A stretch of 64,000 bases of DNA, from NCBI GenBank assembly GCA_963675755.2, contig CAXXMD010000003.1:128001-192000 (forward strand), given 5' to 3'. Made by a program: the position numbers and the translations under genes. This DNA is from a bacterium. GTDB taxonomy: Bacteria; Zhuqueibacterota; Zhuqueibacteria; Residuimicrobiales; Krinioviventaceae. The notes below the pieces were generated by a model. It made no database searches. It was given only the letters and a program-made list of their open reading frames with translations, and had not been told where the DNA came from. This document shows positions 54,911 to 64,000 of this stretch, piece by piece. Every line of letters starts with the position of its first letter. The first letter of the stretch is position 1.

Positions 54911-56284
54911 CTAAATATGAATAATATCATTTTCGCCTTTAATAAAACTTGCAATATGGTCTGCTATCAATCTCTCCAGGTCACAATTCTGAACTGTATC
55001 CATATTCAGCAGATTTACCATTTTACTAGTATACAACCAACTTGCAACAATGTCAATCCTTTTGTTTGTTTTATTTACAGTTGGAGCGGAAAAAAATTCT
55101 AAAACGCGGTTAACAATTTCGCTCAACTCTTTATATTGTTTTTGCACTTCCAACTCTAAAAGACCATGGTTAGGCTTTACACAATAAAGCTTGATCATAC
55201 TCGCATCAAAATGCTCTAAAAACAAAATACAAGGTTTTAATCGGGCTGAAGGAATACTTCTTTTATGCACATCAATCTGCTTATTGATATCCGGATCATA
55301 ATTTTGTATTGCCTCATATTCAAGCAATAACGCTTCAAGCTCGGAACCCGCAAGACGAATTTCTACAGATCTGATCCTATCGCGAATACTTGAAATCTTT
55401 GCTTCTAAATTTTCTGTTTCACGAAAGTAGGAATTTACCCTTTCATACAAATTTCTGGATTTGCCAACGTACATGACTCTATCATTCACATCTCGCATAA
55501 GATAAATGCCCGGCAATTCGGGTAATCCGTTCAGATATTCCCTGTCAAATTGATATTGTGAAAAATCAATTGCTTCAGCTGTTGATTCACAATAATCGGC
55601 AATTTGAACAGCATCTTTTAAACCAAGGGTTTCACACAATTCAAAGGTTGCGGTAAATTGCTCCAGAAATAATTCAAACTGCTGATCGGGCGCTGCATTT
55701 TCCAGATGTGTCACTCCCAATGCACTCGAAATCTGACTGCTTTCACTGATTTTGTTTTCCGGTTGCAATCGCTGTAAAAGTCGTTTTAAAAAAATAATTT
55801 GACTACTAAACTCATGTCCCGTAACCTGCAAAAACATTCGTCTGAACAAAGAGACTTGATTACCAAAACCATCAAAAACAACAATTTGGCCATCTGCTTT
55901 CGCTTTAATCTCTTTGCAAATTCTTTTCAACTCATCATCAGAATATTCTTTGAGTTGTTTTTCAGTCAATAATATAGATTTTTCACCCCTGGGAAATGAA
56001 CGAATATCAAGACGAGCCCAGTCCCAAAATGAGAGTGACCGTTCAGGAACAGCTTTTATCAGAATAAAATCAGTGTCAAGATTAGAATTTTCTATTGGAT
56101 TTACCAAACACCAGGTGTGATCTTTAGATTTGACTATACGATTTGAAGTGGATACTGTGGATTGTACAAGCATATCACAGATGCCGGAATTCACTTCCGG
56201 CATCTTGAAAACATTCTTTACTATATCAGCAGAAGTTGCTTTGCCCCCATTTTGATCAAGAAAATCAATAATGCGTTCTATCAT
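54911..56284 (-). CDS. GIY-YIG (UvrC/Cho-like) nuclease with divergent N-terminal domain
   Basis: LPELPGIYLM..VMYVGKSRNL..RVNSYF, SELEALLLE, P..N. Confidence 0.85.
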   Translation of the reverse strand: MIERIIDFLDQNGGKATSADIVKNVFKMPEVNSGICDMLVQSTVSTSNRIVKSKDHTWCLVNPIENSNLDTDFILIKAVPERSLSFWDWARLDIRSFPRGEKSILLTEKQLKEYSDDELKRICKEIKAKADGQIVVFDGFGNQVSLFRRMFLQVTGHEFSSQIIFLKRLLQRLQPENKISESSQISSALGVTHLENAAPDQQFELFLEQFTATFELCETLGLKDAVQIADYCESTAEAIDFSQYQFDREYLNGLPELPGIYLMRDVNDRVMYVGKSRNLYERVNSYFRETENLEAKISSIRDRIRSVEIRLAGSELEALLLEYEAIQNYDPDINKQIDVHKRSIPSARLKPCILFLEHFDASMIKLYCVKPNHGLLELEVQKQYKELSEIVNRVLEFFSAPTVNKTNKRIDIVASWLYTSKMVNLLNMDTVQNCDLERLIADHIASFIKGENDIIHI

Positions 56285-56299
56285 TAATTGCCTGGTTCA

Positions 56300-56764
56300 T
56301 TAAACCATTCTGGCTTTACCAAACAGAGCTACTCCCAATATTCCACCAACCAGCCCGAATATACTATTAATTATTAAATTAATAATTAATCCAATAATAA
56401 ACGTGCCTCCCGTCAGAGTTCGGGCGGGAATCTCGTCAAAAATGGATTGTATATCCGGATCACTGATGTATTGAGAGACAAAGTCCAAAAAATTAACAGA
56501 CAATGAGCCGGTAATACTGGTCAATACAACGGCAATAACCGCTCCGATAACACCTGCCAGAAATCCCAGCAATGCACCATCAGACATACTTACCCTGCCC
56601 TCCGGAGCCTGCTGCCTGCGATAAAGGTAAATGGTAAACATTCCACCACCAATTACCCCTGCACAACATGCACAGTTGATAAAATTTAGTATAGGAATGC
56701 CACTGACAACTCCAATTACAACTCCACCTAAAAGTGCCGAGTTCCATTTACTATTGTTGTCCAT
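56300..56764 (-). CDS. Gly-rich integral membrane protein
   Basis: Four hydrophobic GxxxG-rich helices; NCACC motif. Confidence 0.75.
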   Translation of the reverse strand: MDNNSKWNSALLGGVVIGVVSGIPILNFINCACCAGVIGGGMFTIYLYRRQQAPEGRVSMSDGALLGFLAGVIGAVIAVVLTSITGSLSVNFLDFVSQYISDPDIQSIFDEIPARTLTGGTFIIGLIINLIINSIFGLVGGILGVALFGKARMV

Positions 56765-56788
56765 AATTCCACTCCATTATCTCTTGTC

Positions 56789-57901
56789 TTAGAAAAAAAC
56801 ACCCAAATCTCTTAATTCAGCATCATCCATTGCGTCCAAAGTAAATTGGGGCAATGCGGTTTCCATATCAACCGGGCGAATTTCCATACCTTTAATACCA
56901 ACCATTAATCCGGATTGGTTTTGGTGTACCAGTTCTACCGCTTTTCTACCAAAACGCTGACCCAGGTTGATATCAAACGCATTTGGTGCAAGACCACGTA
57001 AACTGAAGCCAATATTAGATTGACGTACACGGCTCAAACCAACACCCAATCCCTGAACCAGAATTCTTTGTATAATAACACCTGTACCACCGAGTTTCAG
57101 ATTGCCATGCGGATCGATTTCAGGATCTTCTGACAACATGGATTTCAATACGCCATCCTTGGCATCATCTGCTACTGCTTTTTTAAACAAGGGGTCGTTT
57201 TGATCAAAATTCACACCTTCAGACACAACAATATTGGCGTATCCTTTAGCATCATTAATCGATTTTACTTTTTCTACAAGTGCTTGTAGTTCAAAATTCT
57301 TTTCAGGTACAAGAATAACATCTGCACCGCTTGCAACCCCAGAAAAAAACGCAAGCCATCCAGCCTTACGGCCCATAACTTCGTTCACAGAAATTCTTGC
57401 ATGCGTATCAGCAGAAACAGAAGTGCTTCTAAATGCCTTTGTAGCAAAATCAATAGCAGTATGCGCTCCCAACATCCAATCGGTTTCACTGATATCATTA
57501 TCAATACTTTTTGGAATAGCAATTGTAGGGAAATTAATCTTGTGCATTCCCCACGCGGTGTTTACGGTGTCATTACCTCCGGTTGCAATAATAGCATCAA
57601 CACCCAGCTTTTTCAGGTTTCCCAACAATTTTTCTGGTGCCCATGAATTATTTTTATCATTAAAGGGAGCAAAACGGGAAGATCCCAAAATGGTGCTGGG
57701 GGCATCAAAAATAGATAACGCATCGTTGCTGTCCAACGGTACAATATAATCTTCAACATTATCAGCAGCTAAACCTTCAAACGCTTTTTTTACACCAATA
57801 AAAGTATCACCATATTTAGATGCGCCATGCAATATAGAACGGGCAATTGCCGAATTTATACCTGCACAATCACCACCACCGGTCACAAATGCAATTTTCA
57901 C
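56789..57901 (-). CDS. pfkA: Phosphofructokinase family protein, probably PPi-dependent
   Basis: TGGGDCAGIN, TILGSSR, GGNDT, PKSIDND, EVMGRKAGWLA, VSEG. Confidence 0.88.
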   Translation of the reverse strand: MKIAFVTGGGDCAGINSAIARSILHGASKYGDTFIGVKKAFEGLAADNVEDYIVPLDSNDALSIFDAPSTILGSSRFAPFNDKNNSWAPEKLLGNLKKLGVDAIIATGGNDTVNTAWGMHKINFPTIAIPKSIDNDISETDWMLGAHTAIDFATKAFRSTSVSADTHARISVNEVMGRKAGWLAFFSGVASGADVILVPEKNFELQALVEKVKSINDAKGYANIVVSEGVNFDQNDPLFKKAVADDAKDGVLKSMLSEDPEIDPHGNLKLGGTGVIIQRILVQGLGVGLSRVRQSNIGFSLRGLAPNAFDINLGQRFGRKAVELVHQNQSGLMVGIKGMEIRPVDMETALPQFTLDAMDDAELRDLGVFF

Positions 57902-57964
57902 AACATCTCCTTTATATTAATTTTTATCAAATATTTGAATTTAAATAATATATTGAATTTATAT

Positions 57965-57996
57965 AAAAAAAGACAGACAAAAAATCTTGCCTGTCT
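57965..57996 (-). terminator. Intrinsic terminator upstream of pfk, ending the putative ncRNA
   Basis: Minus strand AGACAGGCAA-gatttt-TTGTCTGTCT followed by a T-run; the G-U pair forms only on the minus strand. Confidence 0.75.
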
Positions 57997-58197
57997 TTCT
58001 TTTTAGATAATACATTCGCCCTACCGATGTAATATCTTTGTGTAGAACTTTTTCCTGTCATCGTGGTTTGGCAGCCCCCTGCTCTATATCCACAATATGG
58101 AAGGAACAAGTTCCCCCATTTACTCAAGTGTGTTCCTCGAACACACCCCCTCATCTTATATGCGACCCCTCAAACTGTATAATCACTTCGAATAATG
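57965..58197 (-). ncRNA. Putative structured ncRNA or leader RNA with repeated (A)GGGG motifs
   Basis: Bounded by the bipartite motif and the terminator; hairpins at 58128-58146, 58045-58113 and 58011-58031; G-runs at 58166-69, 58146-50, 58113-17, 58075-79 and 58019-21. Confidence 0.5.
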
Positions 58198-58202
58198 GCA
58201 TA

Positions 58203-58243
58203 TATTAATATAGTGCCTTAAAATATGCAAAATCTTACACTTT
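58203..58243 (-). promoter_or_regulatory. Putative ECF-sigma promoter, copy A
   Basis: Minus strand AAAGTGTAAGATTTT-gcatattttaagg-CACTATATTAATA. Confidence 0.7.
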
Positions 58244-58333
58244 ATTTTAAAAATATCACTTTTTTTTGTATTTATTTCTTGTATATTAACTTTATACACG
58301 CTTTTTTTTGTCTTTTTGAGGAGATTCTTCAAA

Positions 58334-58969
58334 ATGGATCACAAACGACAAGGTACAAACGATATGACACTAGGTGACCTCCTCGACAACTGCACCAATC
58401 CCAACTCCCCTGTTTGGGAAAAAAGCTGGCAGGAATTCCTCAACAGGTATCAAAATTTCATCTATAAACTTGTATTAAATCGATGCAAAAGCTGGAATTT
58501 GCAACGTATTCAATGCCAGTTACAAGAAGAGGTTGATGACATTGTATTTATAATTATAAGACACTTTATTAAAGACGATTATCGTTTTTTAAAACAATTC
58601 CAAAACCGCGATAACCCACAGCTTTTTCTATTGTACCTATCTACACTCATCAATAGAATTACTAGAAGACATTTGGCAGTTCATTTCAACAAAATTTTAG
58701 ATAACCTTGATGAAGATCAGACAAAAGACACTTTGAAGGAAATATCCCCCGAAGCAGGTTGGGAAATTTACGAAGAACTGATACAAACGCTTCGCAACAG
58801 CATAATTAATAAACATCCCAATAATGAACGCAACATACACCTCTTTCTTATGTATACATGGACAGATATGTCGATTGATATGCTTACCCACAATGATTTT
58901 TACAAACCAATGGGGCAAAATGCCATATATACATTGATAAATCGCATGAGAAATAAAATAAAAGTGTAA
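58334..58969 (+). CDS. Divergent ECF-type sigma-70 factor
   Basis: Region-2-like SWQEFLNRYQNFI..EEVDDI..LKQF..FLLYL; region-4-like RNIHLFLMY..DMS..NAIYTLINRMRNKI; ATG after GAGGAG. Confidence 0.75.
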   Translation: MDHKRQGTNDMTLGDLLDNCTNPNSPVWEKSWQEFLNRYQNFIYKLVLNRCKSWNLQRIQCQLQEEVDDIVFIIIRHFIKDDYRFLKQFQNRDNPQLFLLYLSTLINRITRRHLAVHFNKILDNLDEDQTKDTLKEISPEAGWEIYEELIQTLRNSIINKHPNNERNIHLFLMYTWTDMSIDMLTHNDFYKPMGQNAIYTLINRMRNKIKV

Positions 58970-59001
58970 GATTTTAGTTATAAAACTACACTATATTAAT
59001 A
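58961..59001 (+). promoter_or_regulatory. Putative ECF-sigma promoter, copy B
   Basis: AAAGTGTAAGATTTT-agttataaaacta-CACTATATTAATA, overlapping the sigma stop and about 30 nt upstream of ORF 59031. Confidence 0.7.
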
Positions 59002-59030
59002 ACTGATAACTGTAAAAAGCAAGGTAGTTC

Positions 59031-59441
59031 ATGAGCAGCAGCATAATCGTTCATAAACTTTCAATAGGCAAAGTTTTATCTATAATTCAAGATGATCAAA
59101 ATAGAGAGAAAAATATCTTAGAGAATTATCCGGAATCTATTCATTATTATAATAGCTTAAAGGCCCGTTTCAACAAATTTGAAAATGACCCCAATCTCGC
59201 AAATTCGATATTCAACAGTATCCCGAAACAATGTTGCCAGGCCAACAAATCTTTTTTGAAAGATAACGATGATTTTTTTATCGCGTATACTATACTTTCA
59301 AAAAAGCAAGATATTCACATTAACAATGCTAAACAGTTTATTCATCATTTAAATAACTGCTATTGGTGTTTCATTGAATATAACCAGTTTATAAATGATG
59401 AATACTTTACTAACAAAGAAATTGAGACGGGGGTACTGTAA
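59031..59441 (+). CDS. Soluble protein with zinc-binding anti-sigma (ZAS-like) motif
   Basis: HLNNCYWC matches HxxxCxxC, with an upstream CC; no transmembrane helix. Confidence 0.65.
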   Translation: MSSSIIVHKLSIGKVLSIIQDDQNREKNILENYPESIHYYNSLKARFNKFENDPNLANSIFNSIPKQCCQANKSFLKDNDDFFIAYTILSKKQDIHINNAKQFIHHLNNCYWCFIEYNQFINDEYFTNKEIETGVL

Positions 59442-59445
59442 TAAT

Positions 59446-60558
59446 ATGCGTGAATTAAAAATAACATATGAGCAAATTCTGGAATATATTAATAATCCGG
59501 ATACCAAATCTATAAATATCAGTGAATTAAAAGAAAGCGATCCTGCTTGCTTTTCTCTTTTCACAATGATAGATAATAGCCTGAAACATGCAAATTCGCA
59601 AAATATAGGCACAGAAAACACCACCGCAGGATATCATGAACTCGAAATGATAATCCTGGAACAATTGAGTGGCAATGTTACCAGGTACAACTCGGAAAGA
59701 TTTTTATCTCTCATTACCAGTCATCCTGATTATTACAGAAGAATTCTGGACACCTTTGACACGGAATCCATTCAAGCAGTTAAACTTGAAAACATTGAAA
59801 TCTCAGACAATAACACCCTTATTGAAATAATAAAAGGTCATGAAAGCAATAAAGAAATCCATAAACAATCCACGTTCTTACAATTAAAACTAGTTCTAAA
59901 CCGTTTTTTTCAAAATCTTTTTATGCCAAACAAAAGACCACATTATGCTTTAATCGCAGTTGTCGTTATGACTTTTTCCATTCTCACATTTAAAACCTTT
60001 TTTCAGGAATCTGTTCATAATCCTGTCTATACAAAATATTTCCAATCTTCTAATTTACCTTGCGAATATTATGAAACCTCTACCAGAGGCAACGTTGTAT
60101 CTTTTGATTCAGATTCTCAATACAACAAGACACTAAATCAATTTAAATTCGCAATGGCTGATTATATTCAAAAAAACTATCAAGATGCAAAAAAATCACT
60201 CAACACTATCCTAACTGAAATTGAATCTGGCTCCACACAATCATTGAATACAAGTTCAAATGGAAAGCAACTATTAAGAGACATTTATTTTTACACAGGT
60301 ATTTGCGACCTGGCACTAGCCGGCAAAATGTTTGACACCTCTTTAATTGAATCTGCTTCTGATAGATTCAATACCGCAAAAAAACTGGTTCTTGAATCCA
60401 ACATGAAAGGAGGTGACCGAGAGTTCTTTTTCCTGGGTTTAACTTTTAACCTGCTGGGGAACGATTCACGCTCGCTTGAATATTTGGGGAACATTCAGGA
60501 AAACAGTATCTATTACAGAGATAGTCAAGTTATTGTATCGCAGCTAACGAACCGATAG
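59446..60558 (+). CDS. Single-pass membrane protein with extracytoplasmic TPR-like domain, putative anti-sigma factor
   Basis: TM helix YALIAVVVMTFSILTF; STRG motif; TPR-like helices AMADYIQKNYQDA, YFYTGICDLA, FFLGLTFNLLG. Confidence 0.7.
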   Translation: MRELKITYEQILEYINNPDTKSINISELKESDPACFSLFTMIDNSLKHANSQNIGTENTTAGYHELEMIILEQLSGNVTRYNSERFLSLITSHPDYYRRILDTFDTESIQAVKLENIEISDNNTLIEIIKGHESNKEIHKQSTFLQLKLVLNRFFQNLFMPNKRPHYALIAVVVMTFSILTFKTFFQESVHNPVYTKYFQSSNLPCEYYETSTRGNVVSFDSDSQYNKTLNQFKFAMADYIQKNYQDAKKSLNTILTEIESGSTQSLNTSSNGKQLLRDIYFYTGICDLALAGKMFDTSLIESASDRFNTAKKLVLESNMKGGDREFFFLGLTFNLLGNDSRSLEYLGNIQENSIYYRDSQVIVSQLTNR

Positions 60559-60568
60559 GAGACAACGA

Positions 60569-60733
60569 ATGGAGTTATTTTACCTGTTAATGTCTGGTGT
60601 TGTTGCAGCTGTAACCAAAAGGCTGGTTGATATAAAAAATTTCCAACGGGAAACTGGCATCATTAAATCCCATGGAGGGGATGATCCGGATCCACCACCA
60701 CCCCCTCCCGACCCACCAGATCCCAATTGTTAA
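60569..60733 (+). CDS. Unannotated 54-aa peptide: hydrophobic N-terminus, GG, Asp/Pro-rich tail
   Basis: AGGAG RBS; translates to MELFYLLMSGVVAAVTKRLVDIKNFQRETGIIKSHGGDDPDPPPPPPDPPDPNC; followed by a terminator. Confidence 0.75.
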   Translation: MELFYLLMSGVVAAVTKRLVDIKNFQRETGIIKSHGGDDPDPPPPPPDPPDPNC

Positions 60734-60740
60734 TTAAAAC

Positions 60741-60770
60741 GGTCCTGCCCTTTTTTGCAGGGCCATTTTT
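60741..60770 (+). terminator. Intrinsic terminator after the small peptide
   Basis: GGTCCTGC-N8-GCAGGGCC followed by ATTTTT. Confidence 0.7.
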
Positions 60771-60844
60771 CGTTAAAACCTGCCTGTTGCATTTGAATAT
60801 TTTTTGATTTATCTTGTAATTCAACTAATATTTCATATGTGAAA

Positions 60845-63800
60845 ATGAAAAAACTAATTCCAACATTACTCCTCTTGATATCAAGTTGTCTTGCTTTTGC
60901 AAATCAGGATAATGTGGAATATTATGACTTTCTTCAAACCCTGCAAGGCCTATCAGACAGCACACAGCTTGAACACACCTTGAACTATTTATATGACCAT
61001 CCTGATTTTTGGAAAATATATGAAAAAGCATATAGATTATTTACTTATACGGGTCAAAAAGAAAAGGCATATACTTTTTATGCAAATCTGGTAAATGACA
61101 AACAATATTCACCTTATGCAAATCTGTATTTGTCAAAACTCTACAGAGAAGACAATAAAGCTGATTTCGCCAAACAATATTTTATTTCCGGGTTAGAACA
61201 AAGACAAGATTATTATATTATCTCCGAGTATGCAAAAAATTATACCAATTCATCCCAAATTGACTCAATAGCAAAAAGCCTCTTAGACAGCACCCAATTA
61301 TTGATGGCTAATGGAATGAGTAATTACTACAAGGCCAAATACACTGAGGCAATTGACCTGCTTGAACAAGTATTACAGCATGACAATAATTTAAATTTAC
61401 AGATCATGCTTGGTTATTGTTACATTATCAATAACCAGCATCAACAAGCAGATTCGGTATTTGAAGCAGGTTACAATGATGCAATAAAACAATATAATAT
61501 AGACGGTCAGATTATTTTTTTACAATCATTGGGCAAACTAGCGCTTACACAGAACAACTATAATAAAGCAGAAACGCTGTTAAACAAAGCCCTGGAAAAA
61601 TCTGATGAAATCATAGATTACAGGCGTAAAATAACAACTTTTAATGAACTGGGAAAATTAAAACAAAAACAGGATAAAACAGATTCAAGCTTGGTATATT
61701 TTAATCTGGCCCAATCATACTCTGATAAATTTAAAGGGGAAATACAACTTGCTCAGGTCCTGAGAAATGGATACAATTTTCATCTACACCATCAATACTC
61801 TCAAGCAGTTCAATGCTACAAAGAATCTATCGAGTTGATTGAACCTAATGACTGGAATAATGAATTACGTGTAAAAAGCCTGCTTGTAACACTATATGAA
61901 CGTTTTGGCATGATCAGCCTCATGAACCAAATGCTTGCTGAATGTAAAGTTTTGGCAAATGAAAATAATTACATCAGCACACAAAAATGGGTAGAACTTC
62001 AGGAAATAAAAAATCAACTTTCATTAGATAATTTAGATATTCAAAGGAAAAACCTGGTTAAATTATATAATTATTATCTTAACAAAGGAAATAACAATTT
62101 ATACGGTTGCCTACACACACTTGCCAAGTCCTACATTATTGAGCATAAATATAAAAAAGCACAAACTTTTTATCAATTAGCACTCGATCAAGCTATTAAA
62201 ACAAACAATCAGAGTAAAATAGCATATTATTATGCCCGACTTGCATTTTGGGATATTAAATGCGATGAAACAGACAAAGCCTTGGCAAGGCTGGATTCGG
62301 CAAAAACAATAATTAATAAAATTGACGATTCATATATGGCCAGATTTGTATATAGAACAACGGGGTTGGCACATGAAAAAGCGGCTGATTATGACAGTGC
62401 ACTGGTCTATTATTACAAAGCTATACCTCATACTGAACGGCTTCGTAATAAATTATCAGCCGAAGATCTGAGAATTGGGGTCTTTTCAAGCGATGCCTCT
62501 ATTTACCAGGGTATTGCCCGCAGTTATTTGCAAAAGTACATCTCGAGCAACAATTCTTCCTTATTAGACAGCCTGTATAAATACGAAGAAAGCTTTAGAA
62601 GCCGTGCACTGAAAGACAGAATGGACAATCGAAATATTATGTCCGGTTCAGGCAAGCCGACTAATGAATACTCGCAAGCAATGGAGATGATTTCAGATTT
62701 ACAACAAAAACTGAGAAAACAGGCAGGGACAGAACACACAGATCCCGAATGGGACCAGTTAATGGGCGATCTTGAAGCTGCAAAATACACATTAATCCAG
62801 CAGCGTATATTTATGATTGACAGCTTAAAAACCAGTCAACAAAAAGATTCCGGTACATCTGTGCAATTGTCAGAAATCCGAAAGCAGCTTGAGAAAAACA
62901 ACGCGGGTTTACTTGAATACCACATTGACAGCGAAATCTCGTTTGTTCTAGTAGTAACACCTGACACCACCCATACAGTATTGCTTGCAACCTCCCAAGA
63001 TTCACTTTCAAAAAAAATAAAAAAACTAATGTCTCCATTGCATGATTTGCAAGAGCAAGATCCCAAGATCCCGTTTTATGCCCAAACAGCATATCAACTT
63101 TATGCGGAAATATTTAATCCCATTGAAAAAGAGATCAAACTGCCGGAGAACCTGCTGGTCATCCCGGATGGTCCATTAATGAATCTTCCATTTGAAATGC
63201 TAGTCACACATAAACCAAACAAAGCCGCTTATACCCCCTTGGACGAACCAGACTATAGCAATTCCTTTTTATTGAATCAATATTCATTATTTTACAGCCC
63301 CACCAGCAATATACTAAAAAAATCAGGCTTGAAATTGCTCAACAGACCCAACATGATGGTTTTTGCAAATCCGTTTTCAAATGTTAATGAAATTTCAGAC
63401 AATGTATTACAATACCGTTCACGTACCGGCTGGAATTTTCAGGCCCTCCCGTTTGCTGAACTGGAAGCAAATGAAATATCAAAATTAACTAGCCGGGTCA
63501 AGCTCTACAAACGACAAAACGCAATTGAAACCTACTTTTCCCAAAATGCATCCAAATATGACATTCTCCATCTTGCTACACACGCTTTTGTAGACACTTC
63601 ATTTGAAGCTTTTTCAGGCCTTATTCTTGCTTCCAGTGAGGATTCTACAAACGATGGAATTTTAATGGGTTATGAAATAGAAGACCTTGATCTGGATTGT
63701 GAACTGGTTACATTGAGTGCATGCGAAACCGGTAGAGGCAAAAATATGGCCGCAGAAGGATTGCTGGGCTTGCCCCGATTATTTATGGGAGCGGGAGCAA

Positions 63801-64000
63801 AATCCGTTCTCATGTCACATTGGAAAGTGGATGACCGATTTACTTCAAAACTGATGCCTTTATTTTATCATTATTATTTAACAAAAAAAATGGACAAAGC
63901 AGATGCGCTAGCAAATGCCAAGAGGGATCTTATTAAATCATCGCAAGAAATAAACGGGGAGCATTACCAGCACCCCTTATACTGGGCTGCATTTACTTTA
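60845..64000 (+). CDS. Exported TPR-CHAT (caspase/HetF-like) protease, runs off the window end (at least 1052 aa)
   Basis: My translation: signal or lipobox MKKLIPTLLLLISSCLAFA; TPR helices; LLEY, VIPDGPLMNLPFEML, ILHLATHA (His 63581), LVTLSACETG (Cys 63722), EGLLGL, WKVDD, HPLYWAAF, all in one frame. Confidence 0.92.
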   Translation, partial: MKKLIPTLLLLISSCLAFANQDNVEYYDFLQTLQGLSDSTQLEHTLNYLYDHPDFWKIYEKAYRLFTYTGQKEKAYTFYANLVNDKQYSPYANLYLSKLYREDNKADFAKQYFISGLEQRQDYYIISEYAKNYTNSSQIDSIAKSLLDSTQLLMANGMSNYYKAKYTEAIDLLEQVLQHDNNLNLQIMLGYCYIINNQHQQADSVFEAGYNDAIKQYNIDGQIIFLQSLGKLALTQNNYNKAETLLNKALEKSDEIIDYRRKITTFNELGKLKQKQDKTDSSLVYFNLAQSYSDKFKGEIQLAQVLRNGYNFHLHHQYSQAVQCYKESIELIEPNDWNNELRVKSLLVTLYERFGMISLMNQMLAECKVLANENNYISTQKWVELQEIKNQLSLDNLDIQRKNLVKLYNYYLNKGNNNLYGCLHTLAKSYIIEHKYKKAQTFYQLALDQAIKTNNQSKIAYYYARLAFWDIKCDETDKALARLDSAKTIINKIDDSYMARFVYRTTGLAHEKAADYDSALVYYYKAIPHTERLRNKLSAEDLRIGVFSSDASIYQGIARSYLQKYISSNNSSLLDSLYKYEESFRSRALKDRMDNRNIMSGSGKPTNEYSQAMEMISDLQQKLRKQAGTEHTDPEWDQLMGDLEAAKYTLIQQRIFMIDSLKTSQQKDSGTSVQLSEIRKQLEKNNAGLLEYHIDSEISFVLVVTPDTTHTVLLATSQDSLSKKIKKLMSPLHDLQEQDPKIPFYAQTAYQLYAEIFNPIEKEIKLPENLLVIPDGPLMNLPFEMLVTHKPNKAAYTPLDEPDYSNSFLLNQYSLFYSPTSNILKKSGLKLLNRPNMMVFANPFSNVNEISDNVLQYRSRTGWNFQALPFAELEANEISKLTSRVKLYKRQNAIETYFSQNASKYDILHLATHAFVDTSFEAFSGLILASSEDSTNDGILMGYEIEDLDLDCELVTLSACETGRGKNMAAEGLLGLPRLFMGAGAKSVLMSHWKVDDRFTSKLMPLFYHYYLTKKMDKADALANAKRDLIKSSQEINGEHYQHPLYWAAFTL

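Follow-up and report, generated by a model that had tools for sequence, protein, structure and literature searches.

Inverted copies of a two-box, promoter-like motif flank a diverged sigma-like gene in a Zhuqueibacterota genome

Two identical copies of a two-box motif, inverted relative to each other, stand on either side of one open reading frame (ORF) in an uncultured bacterium of the phylum Zhuqueibacterota, which raises the question of what reads them and which genes they serve. The copies lie in a 64,000-nt stretch, here called the window (GenBank assembly GCA_963675755.2, contig CAXXMD010000003.1, positions 128,001 to 192,000; C3:128001-192000 in our numbering), and the ORF encodes a protein of 211 amino acids (aa). 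An earlier note on this DNA had taken the ORF for a sigma factor and the boxes for the -35 and -10 elements of two promoters of the extracytoplasmic function (ECF) type. We present here searches of the window, the genome, and its relatives, together with structural modeling of the encoded proteins. The comparative evidence supports the promoter reading, and both copies are probably read by RNA polymerase carrying a diverged ECF-like sigma factor that is encoded between them.

The genome (G000) is a 6.48-Mb assembly of 3 contigs with a GC content of 39-40%. G and L numbers denote genomes and loci, G001 being the sister species (93% protein identity); the related loci come from records labeled candidate division KSB1, Calditrichia, and Calditrichaeota metagenome-assembled genomes.

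The motif in the window, the genome, and the phylum

The motif consists of a 15-nt box, a 13-nt gap, and a 13-nt box. A pattern search allowing up to 3 mismatches found it exactly twice in the window:

58203 to 58243, minus strand: left motif copy, with a -35-like TGTAAGA running from 58239 to 58233 and a -10-like CACTAT from 58215 to 58210, pointing away from the sigma-like gene
58961 to 59001, plus strand: right motif copy, with a -35-like TGTAAGA at 58965 to 58971, overlapping the TAA of the sigma-like gene, and a -10-like CACTAT at 58989 to 58994

The same motif, inverted on both flanks, had been described in the earlier note, and the match is complete: both copies have 0 mismatches over the 28 specified box positions, and a comparison of their 13-nt spacers shows 9 differences in 13 positions. 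The first box of the right copy takes in the TAA (58967 to 58969) that ends the intervening ORF. Transcription would start near 58197-58204 on the minus strand from the left copy and near 59001-59007 from the right copy, about 25-30 nt 5′ of an ATG at 59031.

A genome-wide scan for a regulon, which the note had suggested, returned only these two sites in the whole assembly, both flanking the sigma-like gene, with none other within 4 mismatches. The next-best sites were off at 5, 6, and at least 7 of the 28 positions, and their counts were like those in a shuffled genome; a core-only match at C3:729594 lacked similarity in the flanking boxes and was rejected. Scored with a position weight matrix (PWM) built from 16 sites of the family, the left and right copies rank first (28.8) and second (24.3) in the genome. 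A third site, on contig C2 near 1099553 (minus strand; score 23.9; TGTGAGA-N17-CTCTTG), lies just beyond the end of a LemA-like ORF, reads antisense into it, and has no obvious downstream unit; it is probably spurious.

The boxes are conserved where the spacers are not. In the sister species, 0 of 56 box positions and 6 of 26 spacer positions are changed (Fisher p = 6.6e-4), the left copy alone having unchanged boxes and 4 of 13 spacer positions changed; the sigma-like coding sequence is identical at 570 of 636 nucleotides. Distant orthologues have the consensus (T)GAGAGA-N17-C[T/A]CTAT at or just past the sigma stop codon. The regular expression TGNNNG[AT]-N17-CNCT starts between -25 and +5 of that stop in 12 of 18 unique loci (expected, 0.0037 per locus), and with the PWM, 16 of the 18 orthologous loci that could be assessed have a plus-strand site 3′ of the sigma-like gene, both patterns having been designed after the loci were viewed and the genomes being related and not independent. 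In a blind set of 15 loci from other families of the phylum, all outside the PWM, the best plus-strand match lay between about -10 and +28 nt relative to the stop in 13, with scores of 11.8 to 21.6 (the top match of L064 has the same sequence as that of L044). Across the genomes of 5 relatives, TGAGAGA-N17-CYCTAT occurs 5 times, 4 of them at the sigma locus; a reversed-pattern control occurs once. Depending on the genome, the motif encodes M/L-R-E, supplies the TGA or TAA stop, or follows the stop, so that it stands in three codon phases, and this independence of frame indicates a constraint on DNA and not on protein.

The plus-strand copies precede the second or the third gene of a conserved unit (described below), standing directly 5′ of the third gene in L047, L049, and L051. 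L001, L039, L041, L048, L033, L029, L059, L063, L069, and L072 also have a minus-strand copy 5′ of the sigma-like gene, and L032 has a weak one that shares the boxes. These minus-strand copies are always oriented toward a downstream unit.

Two explanations without a promoter can be judged from these results. A recent duplication or chance could have produced identical copies with no function, for which the AT-rich context is the sole argument. None of 100 dinucleotide shuffles of the window yielded any match, both copies are kept in the sister species while their spacers diverge, and the motif recurs across the phylum; we give this explanation next to no weight. Recombination sites that let the 717-bp sigma segment invert would suit two inverted copies with a discrete segment between them. 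The central 13 nt, which would have to be identical for strand exchange, nevertheless differ at 9 of 13 positions, single sites are not palindromic, many orthologous loci have the plus-strand copy only, and flipping would leave the link of the sigma gene to its own upstream region unchanged. No recombinase was found among the neighbors scanned (a GIY-YIG protein, a membrane protein, and a phosphofructokinase at 54911-57901; a TPR-CHAT protein downstream). The note had named inversion of the segment as an observation that would tell against promoters; contigs assembled from 3 DNA runs, possibly the source sample, hold the window orientation only, with no joints, one spanning the whole stretch and others bridging each copy (such contigs drop rare variants). 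With an identical core, a nearby recombinase, and a second orientation all lacking from these data, we regard inversion as highly improbable.

The sigma-like gene and the probable reader of the boxes

The ORF between the copies is the following:

58334 to 58969, plus strand: 211-aa protein, a diverged ECF-like sigma, region-2-like at about residues 9-140 and region-4-like at about residues 139-211

Searches of Pfam and NCBIfam gave the protein 0 matches, Sigma70_r2, Sigma70_r4_2, and Sigma70_ECF included, and 1 of 14 orthologues reaches Sigma70_r2 (E = 0.069). A family profile run against PDB sequences gave no sigma match (best, a response regulator, E = 0.23), and a word-indexed homologue search returned 5 proteins without names and nothing else. 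Without a profile match, the sigma identity of the protein needed separate proof.

That proof was sought in structure and in remote relatives. An AlphaFold2 model of the full protein, made from a 14-sequence alignment, has a mean predicted local distance difference test score (pLDDT) of 80.8. The top Foldseek rows are whole ECF sigma factors (sigmaE, AlgU, SigW, SigK, and CnrH), aligned over 197-210 columns with weak E values of 0.15-0.7. In an aligner independent of Foldseek, sigma region 2 accounts for 17 of the 18 top rows of the full model, over residues 9-140 and with Z of 7.0-9.6 (SigW, Z 9.6, root mean square deviation [rmsd] 3.5, 96 aligned; sigmaE region 2, Z 9.3; SigK, Z 9.3). The last 80 residues modeled alone (pLDDT 90.7) have sigma region 4 as 18 of 22 top rows, with Z of 5.7-7.0 (CnrH, Z 7.0, rmsd 2.5, 61 aligned; SigL, Z 6.6; SigR region 4, Z 6.4). 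Z values of 7-9.6 and 5.7-7.0 are moderate and often reached by helical proteins, so the case from fold rests on the consistency of the sigma matches and on the correct order of the domains. The two-domain architecture, with region 4 after region 2 and neither region 1.1 nor region 3, is seen at the level of fold with these moderate Z values. Both domains also have the chain 9n9q_C among their fold matches (Z 7.6 and 5.5); its entry bears the title "RNA-guided transcription complex," and the likeness is at fold level only.

By an exhaustive profile search, 1,147 representative clusters belong to the sigma-like family at E ≤ 0.001. Among 10 remote members, 6 match sigma profiles, 4 of them Sigma70_r2 (one above the cut-off, 26.0 versus 24 bits) and 2 Sigma70_r4_2 (both below it). 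The nearest named clusters of the ESM Atlas (0.95-0.98) are ECF sigma factors, with Sigma70_r2, Sigma70_ECF, or Sigma70_r4_2 on 10-95% of their members. The paralogue L037 (G018:C410) is followed by a single protein that joins zf-HC2 (28.9 bits; cut-off, 22.2), a hydrophobic segment, and TPR repeats. From the fold, the transitive profile matches, the ESM Atlas neighbors, and this paralogue beside a zf-HC2 anti-sigma, we conclude, in agreement with the earlier note, that the product of the gene is an ECF-like sigma factor, strongly diverged and missed by profile libraries; because it fails the curated profiles, we term it ECF-like and not a profile-defined member. The family occurs both in the order (16 of 43 genomes) and in the phylum as a whole (59 of 167 at E ≤ 1e-15; the tally includes one unpublished genome, G162, which contributed nothing further to the analysis). 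Further paralogues are L035, L036, and L038, with at most 4 matches per genome in the phylum. At L047:2501-3837, a tandem pair of sigma-like genes lies 5′ of a small Cys/His protein, and the motif then precedes a 412-aa gene.

Whether this protein reads the boxes is a separate matter, since their conservation and placement show a functional DNA element and not its reader. The boxes could be the operator of a conventional repressor or activator encoded elsewhere that coregulates both units, with the sigma-like protein uninvolved. The consensus does show inverted symmetry in part (AGAG...CTCT), as a dimer site might have, and the complementarity is full in 7 of 16 sites. The symmetry is lost when a box changes, however: in 9 of the 16 sites no more than 1-3 of the 4 positions pair, and in those of the present genome 1 of 4 does. 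Two boxes that are unlike each other, held at a fixed 17-nt gap, and without compensated symmetry argue against a palindromic operator or an RNA hairpin, and, always facing a downstream unit, they look more like a -35/-10 pair than like a dimer site. The motif is moreover tied to the sigma-like gene throughout the phylum and nearly absent elsewhere in the genomes.

The -35 box also changes along with the C-terminal helix of the protein. TGAGAG(A/T) occurs mostly in genomes whose recognition helix is RV[VLI]DNV; G000 and G001 have the helix NAIYTL and TGTAAGA in both copies; and in G007, with the helix PALEQI, both copies have TGTC[A/T][T/G]A and share CACTTATTA. Both copies and the linked protein thus change together in two lineages, as predicted if that protein recognizes the boxes, the sample being small (two or three lineages) and confounded by phylogeny. 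On this evidence we consider an operator read by another protein improbable. The free spacer of fixed length between a -35 and a -10 box, as claimed in the note, is supported in turn by a motif that is phylum-wide, independent of frame, and conserved against spacer drift in the sister species.

Units presumably served by the two copies

The region upstream of the sigma-like gene and the right-hand unit comprise the following features:

58244 to 58333, plus strand: upstream region of the sigma-like gene itself, without a motif copy
59031 to 59441, plus strand: 136-aa candidate cytoplasmic anti-sigma partner (gene 2), immediately 3′ of the sigma-like gene and carrying a conserved Cys as well as HLNxCYWCF (HxxxCxxC)
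59446 to 60558, plus strand: 370-aa candidate membrane sensor or anti-sigma component (gene 3, the conserved third gene), hydrophobic in a central stretch and TPR-like in its C-terminal half
60569 to 60733, plus strand: 54-aa ORF (gene 4), the last of the unit, with a hydrophobic N terminus, a poly-proline tail PPPPPPDPPDPNC, and GGAG upstream
60741 to 60764, plus strand: intrinsic-terminator-like hairpin (minimum free energy [MFE] -15.3 kcal/mol, z -3.8), which ends the right-hand unit

The note had held that neither copy transcribes the sigma gene itself. This was borne out: no copy faces the gene, there is no plus-strand copy 5′ of it in G000, and among 34 loci scanned no upstream plus-strand copy scored 12 or more and none was convincing, so that autoregulation through the motif was not found. 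Borderline PWM scores were obtained upstream in L032 (11.9), L069 (8.5), and L071 (8.0). In L069 (near 1398) and L071 (near 1377), a perfect TGAGAG(A/T) on the plus strand is followed after 17 nt by TGTCGT or TGTCTA in place of C[T/A]CTAT; these boxes lie about 100-125 nt 5′ of the sigma-like gene and may be a weak autoregulatory promoter of that branch. By eye, the upstream regions of orthologues contain TTGAAT-N17-TATAAT-like sequences, and the sigma-like gene is presumably expressed from a housekeeping-type promoter in 58244-58333. A scan of 57850-59500 for the sigma-70 consensus gave 8 matches, with 9.3 expected. Under the tentative wider reading given below, a left promoter, back to back with the sigma gene's own, might occlude it.

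The right copy precedes genes 2 to 4, which run to the terminator at 60741-60764. Gene order 3′ of the sigma-like gene is conserved, with a protein of about 135 aa, then one of about 340-400 aa, and, in many loci, an ORF of about 55-65 aa. When the sigma-like and 136-aa proteins were modeled as a complex, ipSAE was 0.79 (best control, 0.00), a mark that 58 of 80 solved complexes attain, as do 2 of 110 mismatched pairs; the score is a model confidence and may mirror likeness to solved sigma/anti-sigma pairs. Contact agreement among runs was at least 67%, and the pLDDT of the partner was at least 80. The predicted interface joins residues 142-193 of the sigma, in the region-4-like domain, with residues 71-128 of the partner, its conserved Cys/His part. 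The 136-aa protein may bind region 4 as an anti-sigma factor. None of 17 members of its family matched Pfam, zf-HC2 and other anti-sigma profiles included, and the ESM Atlas gave no usable match for it.

The third gene matches TPR profiles through its orthologue in L040, below the curated cut-offs, and its transmembrane segment is a by-eye reading. BLASTP found no similarity between it and the zf-HC2/TPR anti-sigma of the paralogue (E = 1.5). The 54-aa ORF has no Pfam match; similar small ORFs with proline-rich tails lie 3′ of gene 3 in L039, L040, L042, L043, L045, L046, and L048. With a conserved operon after the right copy, and a first product predicted to bind the sigma-like protein, the proposal that this copy drives an anti-sigma operon gains support. 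On the downstream side, a gene at 60839-64000 (plus strand), which continues beyond the window edge, adjoins the terminator of the sigma operon; its product, longer than 1,053 aa, has a hydrophobic segment at the N terminus, TPR repeats, and, at the C terminus, a CHAT domain (PF12770, E = 1.6e-57).

On the left, the copy is followed by these features:

57958 to 58202, minus strand: predicted divergent transcript, about 240 nt long; of its four G4-5 tracts, three stand in a (G)AGGGGG context
56789 to 57901, minus strand: pfk (phosphofructokinase)
54911 to 56284, minus strand: 457-aa protein with a GIY-YIG nuclease domain (E = 5.6e-8)

The G-tract RNA has an MFE of -74.4 kcal/mol (z -6.0), and its 3′ end is a 17-bp hairpin with a U-run (57962-58005, -19.4 kcal/mol, z -6.9). 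A divergent RNA had been named in the note as the target of the left copy, which indeed precedes a predicted RNA that ends in a terminator. G-tract RNAs also lie 3′ of minus-strand copies in G001, G004, G007, G009, and G017. The region is identical to that of the sister species at 224 of 240 positions, with indels, and is thus not a conserved ORF; a 75-aa minus-strand ORF (57927-58154) was rejected as a gene because it traverses the terminator and the sister species has indels there. When the RNAs of six genomes are aligned, only the G-runs align (mean column identity, 45%). The divergent RNAs of the window, L048, L033, L032, and L029 share repeated (G)AGGGGG(U) tracts. At gathering thresholds, Rfam gave 0 matches in the window, and at E ≤ 10 it gave chance-level rows only.

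By analogy with the small RNAs that depend on sigmaE, we favor a sigma-dependent riboregulator as the role of this RNA. Judged by eye, AGGGGGU could pair with the anti-Shine-Dalgarno of 16S rRNA with one G-U wobble; the repeated (G)AGGGGGU motifs could also titrate an RNA-binding protein, and the tracts of G009, spaced 5-7 nt apart, would allow a G-quadruplex. A role as a CsrA sponge is not supported: a CsrA gene is present (84 bits), and the RNA has 4 GGA where about 3 are expected by our own count. Targeting of the poly-proline codons of gene 4, to which 9 nt are complementary by eye in G000, was rejected, as the sister species keeps the RNA motif without the C-run and the sequence of G009 does not fit.

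The left-copy transcript could instead be the 5′ leader of pfk, an attenuator and not a free small RNA. In G000, G001, and G004, pfk lies 3′ of the G-tract region on the same strand, which makes a leader function a live alternative, and the hairpin is only about 60 nt from the pfk start, leaving little room for a separate promoter. Yet the hairpin with its U-run is a strong terminator-like structure, the G-tract RNAs of G009, G017, and G007 were not seen to be followed by pfk, and Rfam gave no riboswitch or leader match (best, the L20 leader, 21.7 bits against a gathering score of 58.7). We judge the leader unlikely and retain the riboregulator as the preferred reading.

Outside the genomes with G-tract RNAs, the start codons of protein ORFs follow the minus-strand copies at a distance of about 95-145 nt. 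The ORF in L059 and L063 (…YQI.VGD.IEVKFFYQ.DLNEIVTVRPDG…) seems to resemble polysaccharide-export (Wza-type) proteins, and the divergent copy of L069 precedes a 70-aa ORF that looks like a TM2-domain protein. In L020, L045, and L046, the minus-strand region 5′ of the sigma-like gene opens with an ORF whose N terminus, by eye, is like that of the 457-aa GIY-YIG protein; given this similar placement, pfk and the membrane-protein genes would be an insertion in this genus.

Proposed circuit and comparison with known systems

Several points weigh against a promoter read by the sigma-like protein. Curated profiles are silent on that protein and nearly so on its orthologues, and its fold scores are moderate. 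The confidence of the predicted complex may reflect its likeness to solved pairs. The motif patterns were drawn up with the loci in view; a plus-strand site is missing from L041 and L050 (2 of the 18 assessable loci) and, at the stop, from L067 and L072 (2 of the 15 in the blind set), and the third site on C2, scoring 23.9 without a downstream unit, makes the PWM score alone nonspecific. Covariation of helix and -35 box draws on few lineages and is imperfect, as G010 combines TGTAAGT with a near-standard helix, RVVDVV. To our knowledge the boxes are unlike the usual AAC/CGT-type elements of ECF promoters, and no RNA sequencing runs containing 57900-59500 are listed. Set against the uniqueness, conservation, and placement of the motif, these points leave the promoter reading probable.

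Under the promoter reading, TGTAAGA would be the -35 element, touched by the region-4-like domain, and CACTAT(ATTAATA), 17 nt downstream, would be the -10 element and start region, touched by the region-2-like domain. The sigma factor would be made from a housekeeping-type promoter in its own motif-free upstream region. Free sigma would then transcribe the inhibitor operon from a promoter within its own stop codon, giving negative feedback through the 136-aa Cys/His protein that would bind region 4, the TPR membrane protein, and the small proline-rich membrane peptide. Its one further predicted output in this genus would be the divergent G-tract RNA, about 240 nt long.

These elements would also allow a wider reading, which is tentative and of low probability. 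A phylum-wide sigma family invisible to profiles (about 1,150 clusters at 50% identity) would be wired opposite to the textbook ECF arrangement: the sigma factor would be constitutive, the promoter at its stop codon would drive inhibitor genes only, and the divergent copy would drive one lineage-specific output, here a new G-tract riboregulator. Literature on KSB1 sigma factors and on ECF internal promoters yielded no description of the family, and one may still be published.

If confirmed, the locus would provide an ECF-like sigma family wholly missed by annotation pipelines, together with its promoter consensus, partner proteins, and targets. It would be a natural ECF module of pure negative feedback with a regulon of two transcription units, informative on signaling logic and usable as an orthogonal sigma/promoter/anti-sigma part, and it would add a sigma-controlled small RNA, rich in G-tracts and so far unclassified, from an uncultured lineage. 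A promoter 3′ of the gene would be a blind spot of ECF motif prediction from upstream regions.

Among the nearest known systems are the ECF (group 4) sigma factors, sorted into 157 groups by Casas-Pastor et al. 2021 (PMC7826278); according to that paper they "usually autoregulate" and have group-specific promoter motifs predicted from upstream regions, some groups, such as ECF32, not being autoregulated. Shared with them are a sigma2-plus-sigma4-like fold, a co-encoded candidate anti-sigma, and a presumed group-specific, bipartite promoter with a fixed spacer. The present protein differs in being undetected by the Sigma70_r2, Sigma70_r4_2, and ECF profiles and in having its conserved presumed promoter 3′ of the gene.

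The 136-aa protein resembles ZAS anti-sigma factors (zf-HC2; RsrA, RslA, RsiW, and ChrR) in its HxxxCxxC, its conserved upstream Cys, and its predicted contact with region 4. In contrast to these, its family has no zf-HC2 match (0 of 17), its motif is near the C terminus of a small, soluble-looking protein, and the membrane TPR protein is a separate gene without a Cys/His motif. In the L037 paralogue system the Cys/His and TPR modules are fused, whereas in the window they are separate genes.

The closest likeness in circuitry is to rpoE-rseABC of Escherichia coli. There, the sigmaE-dependent promoter rseA P3 lies inside rpoE and drives rseABC, so that an ECF-read promoter within the sigma coding region serves the anti-sigma genes separately and gives negative feedback (PMC8595263). 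SigmaE is also reported to drive the small RNAs MicA, RybB, MicL, and MicV (e.g., PMC1851643 and PMC6694218). Only E. coli has a sigmaE-dependent promoter upstream of rpoE as well (positive autoregulation), and its P3 starts 228 nt before rseA, whereas in the present system neither copy points at the sigma gene and the right-hand promoter would overlap the stop codon. Relative to sigmaE, the predicted regulon of the present system is just two units, its box sequences are unrelated, and its RNA is rich in G-tracts and belongs to no known family.

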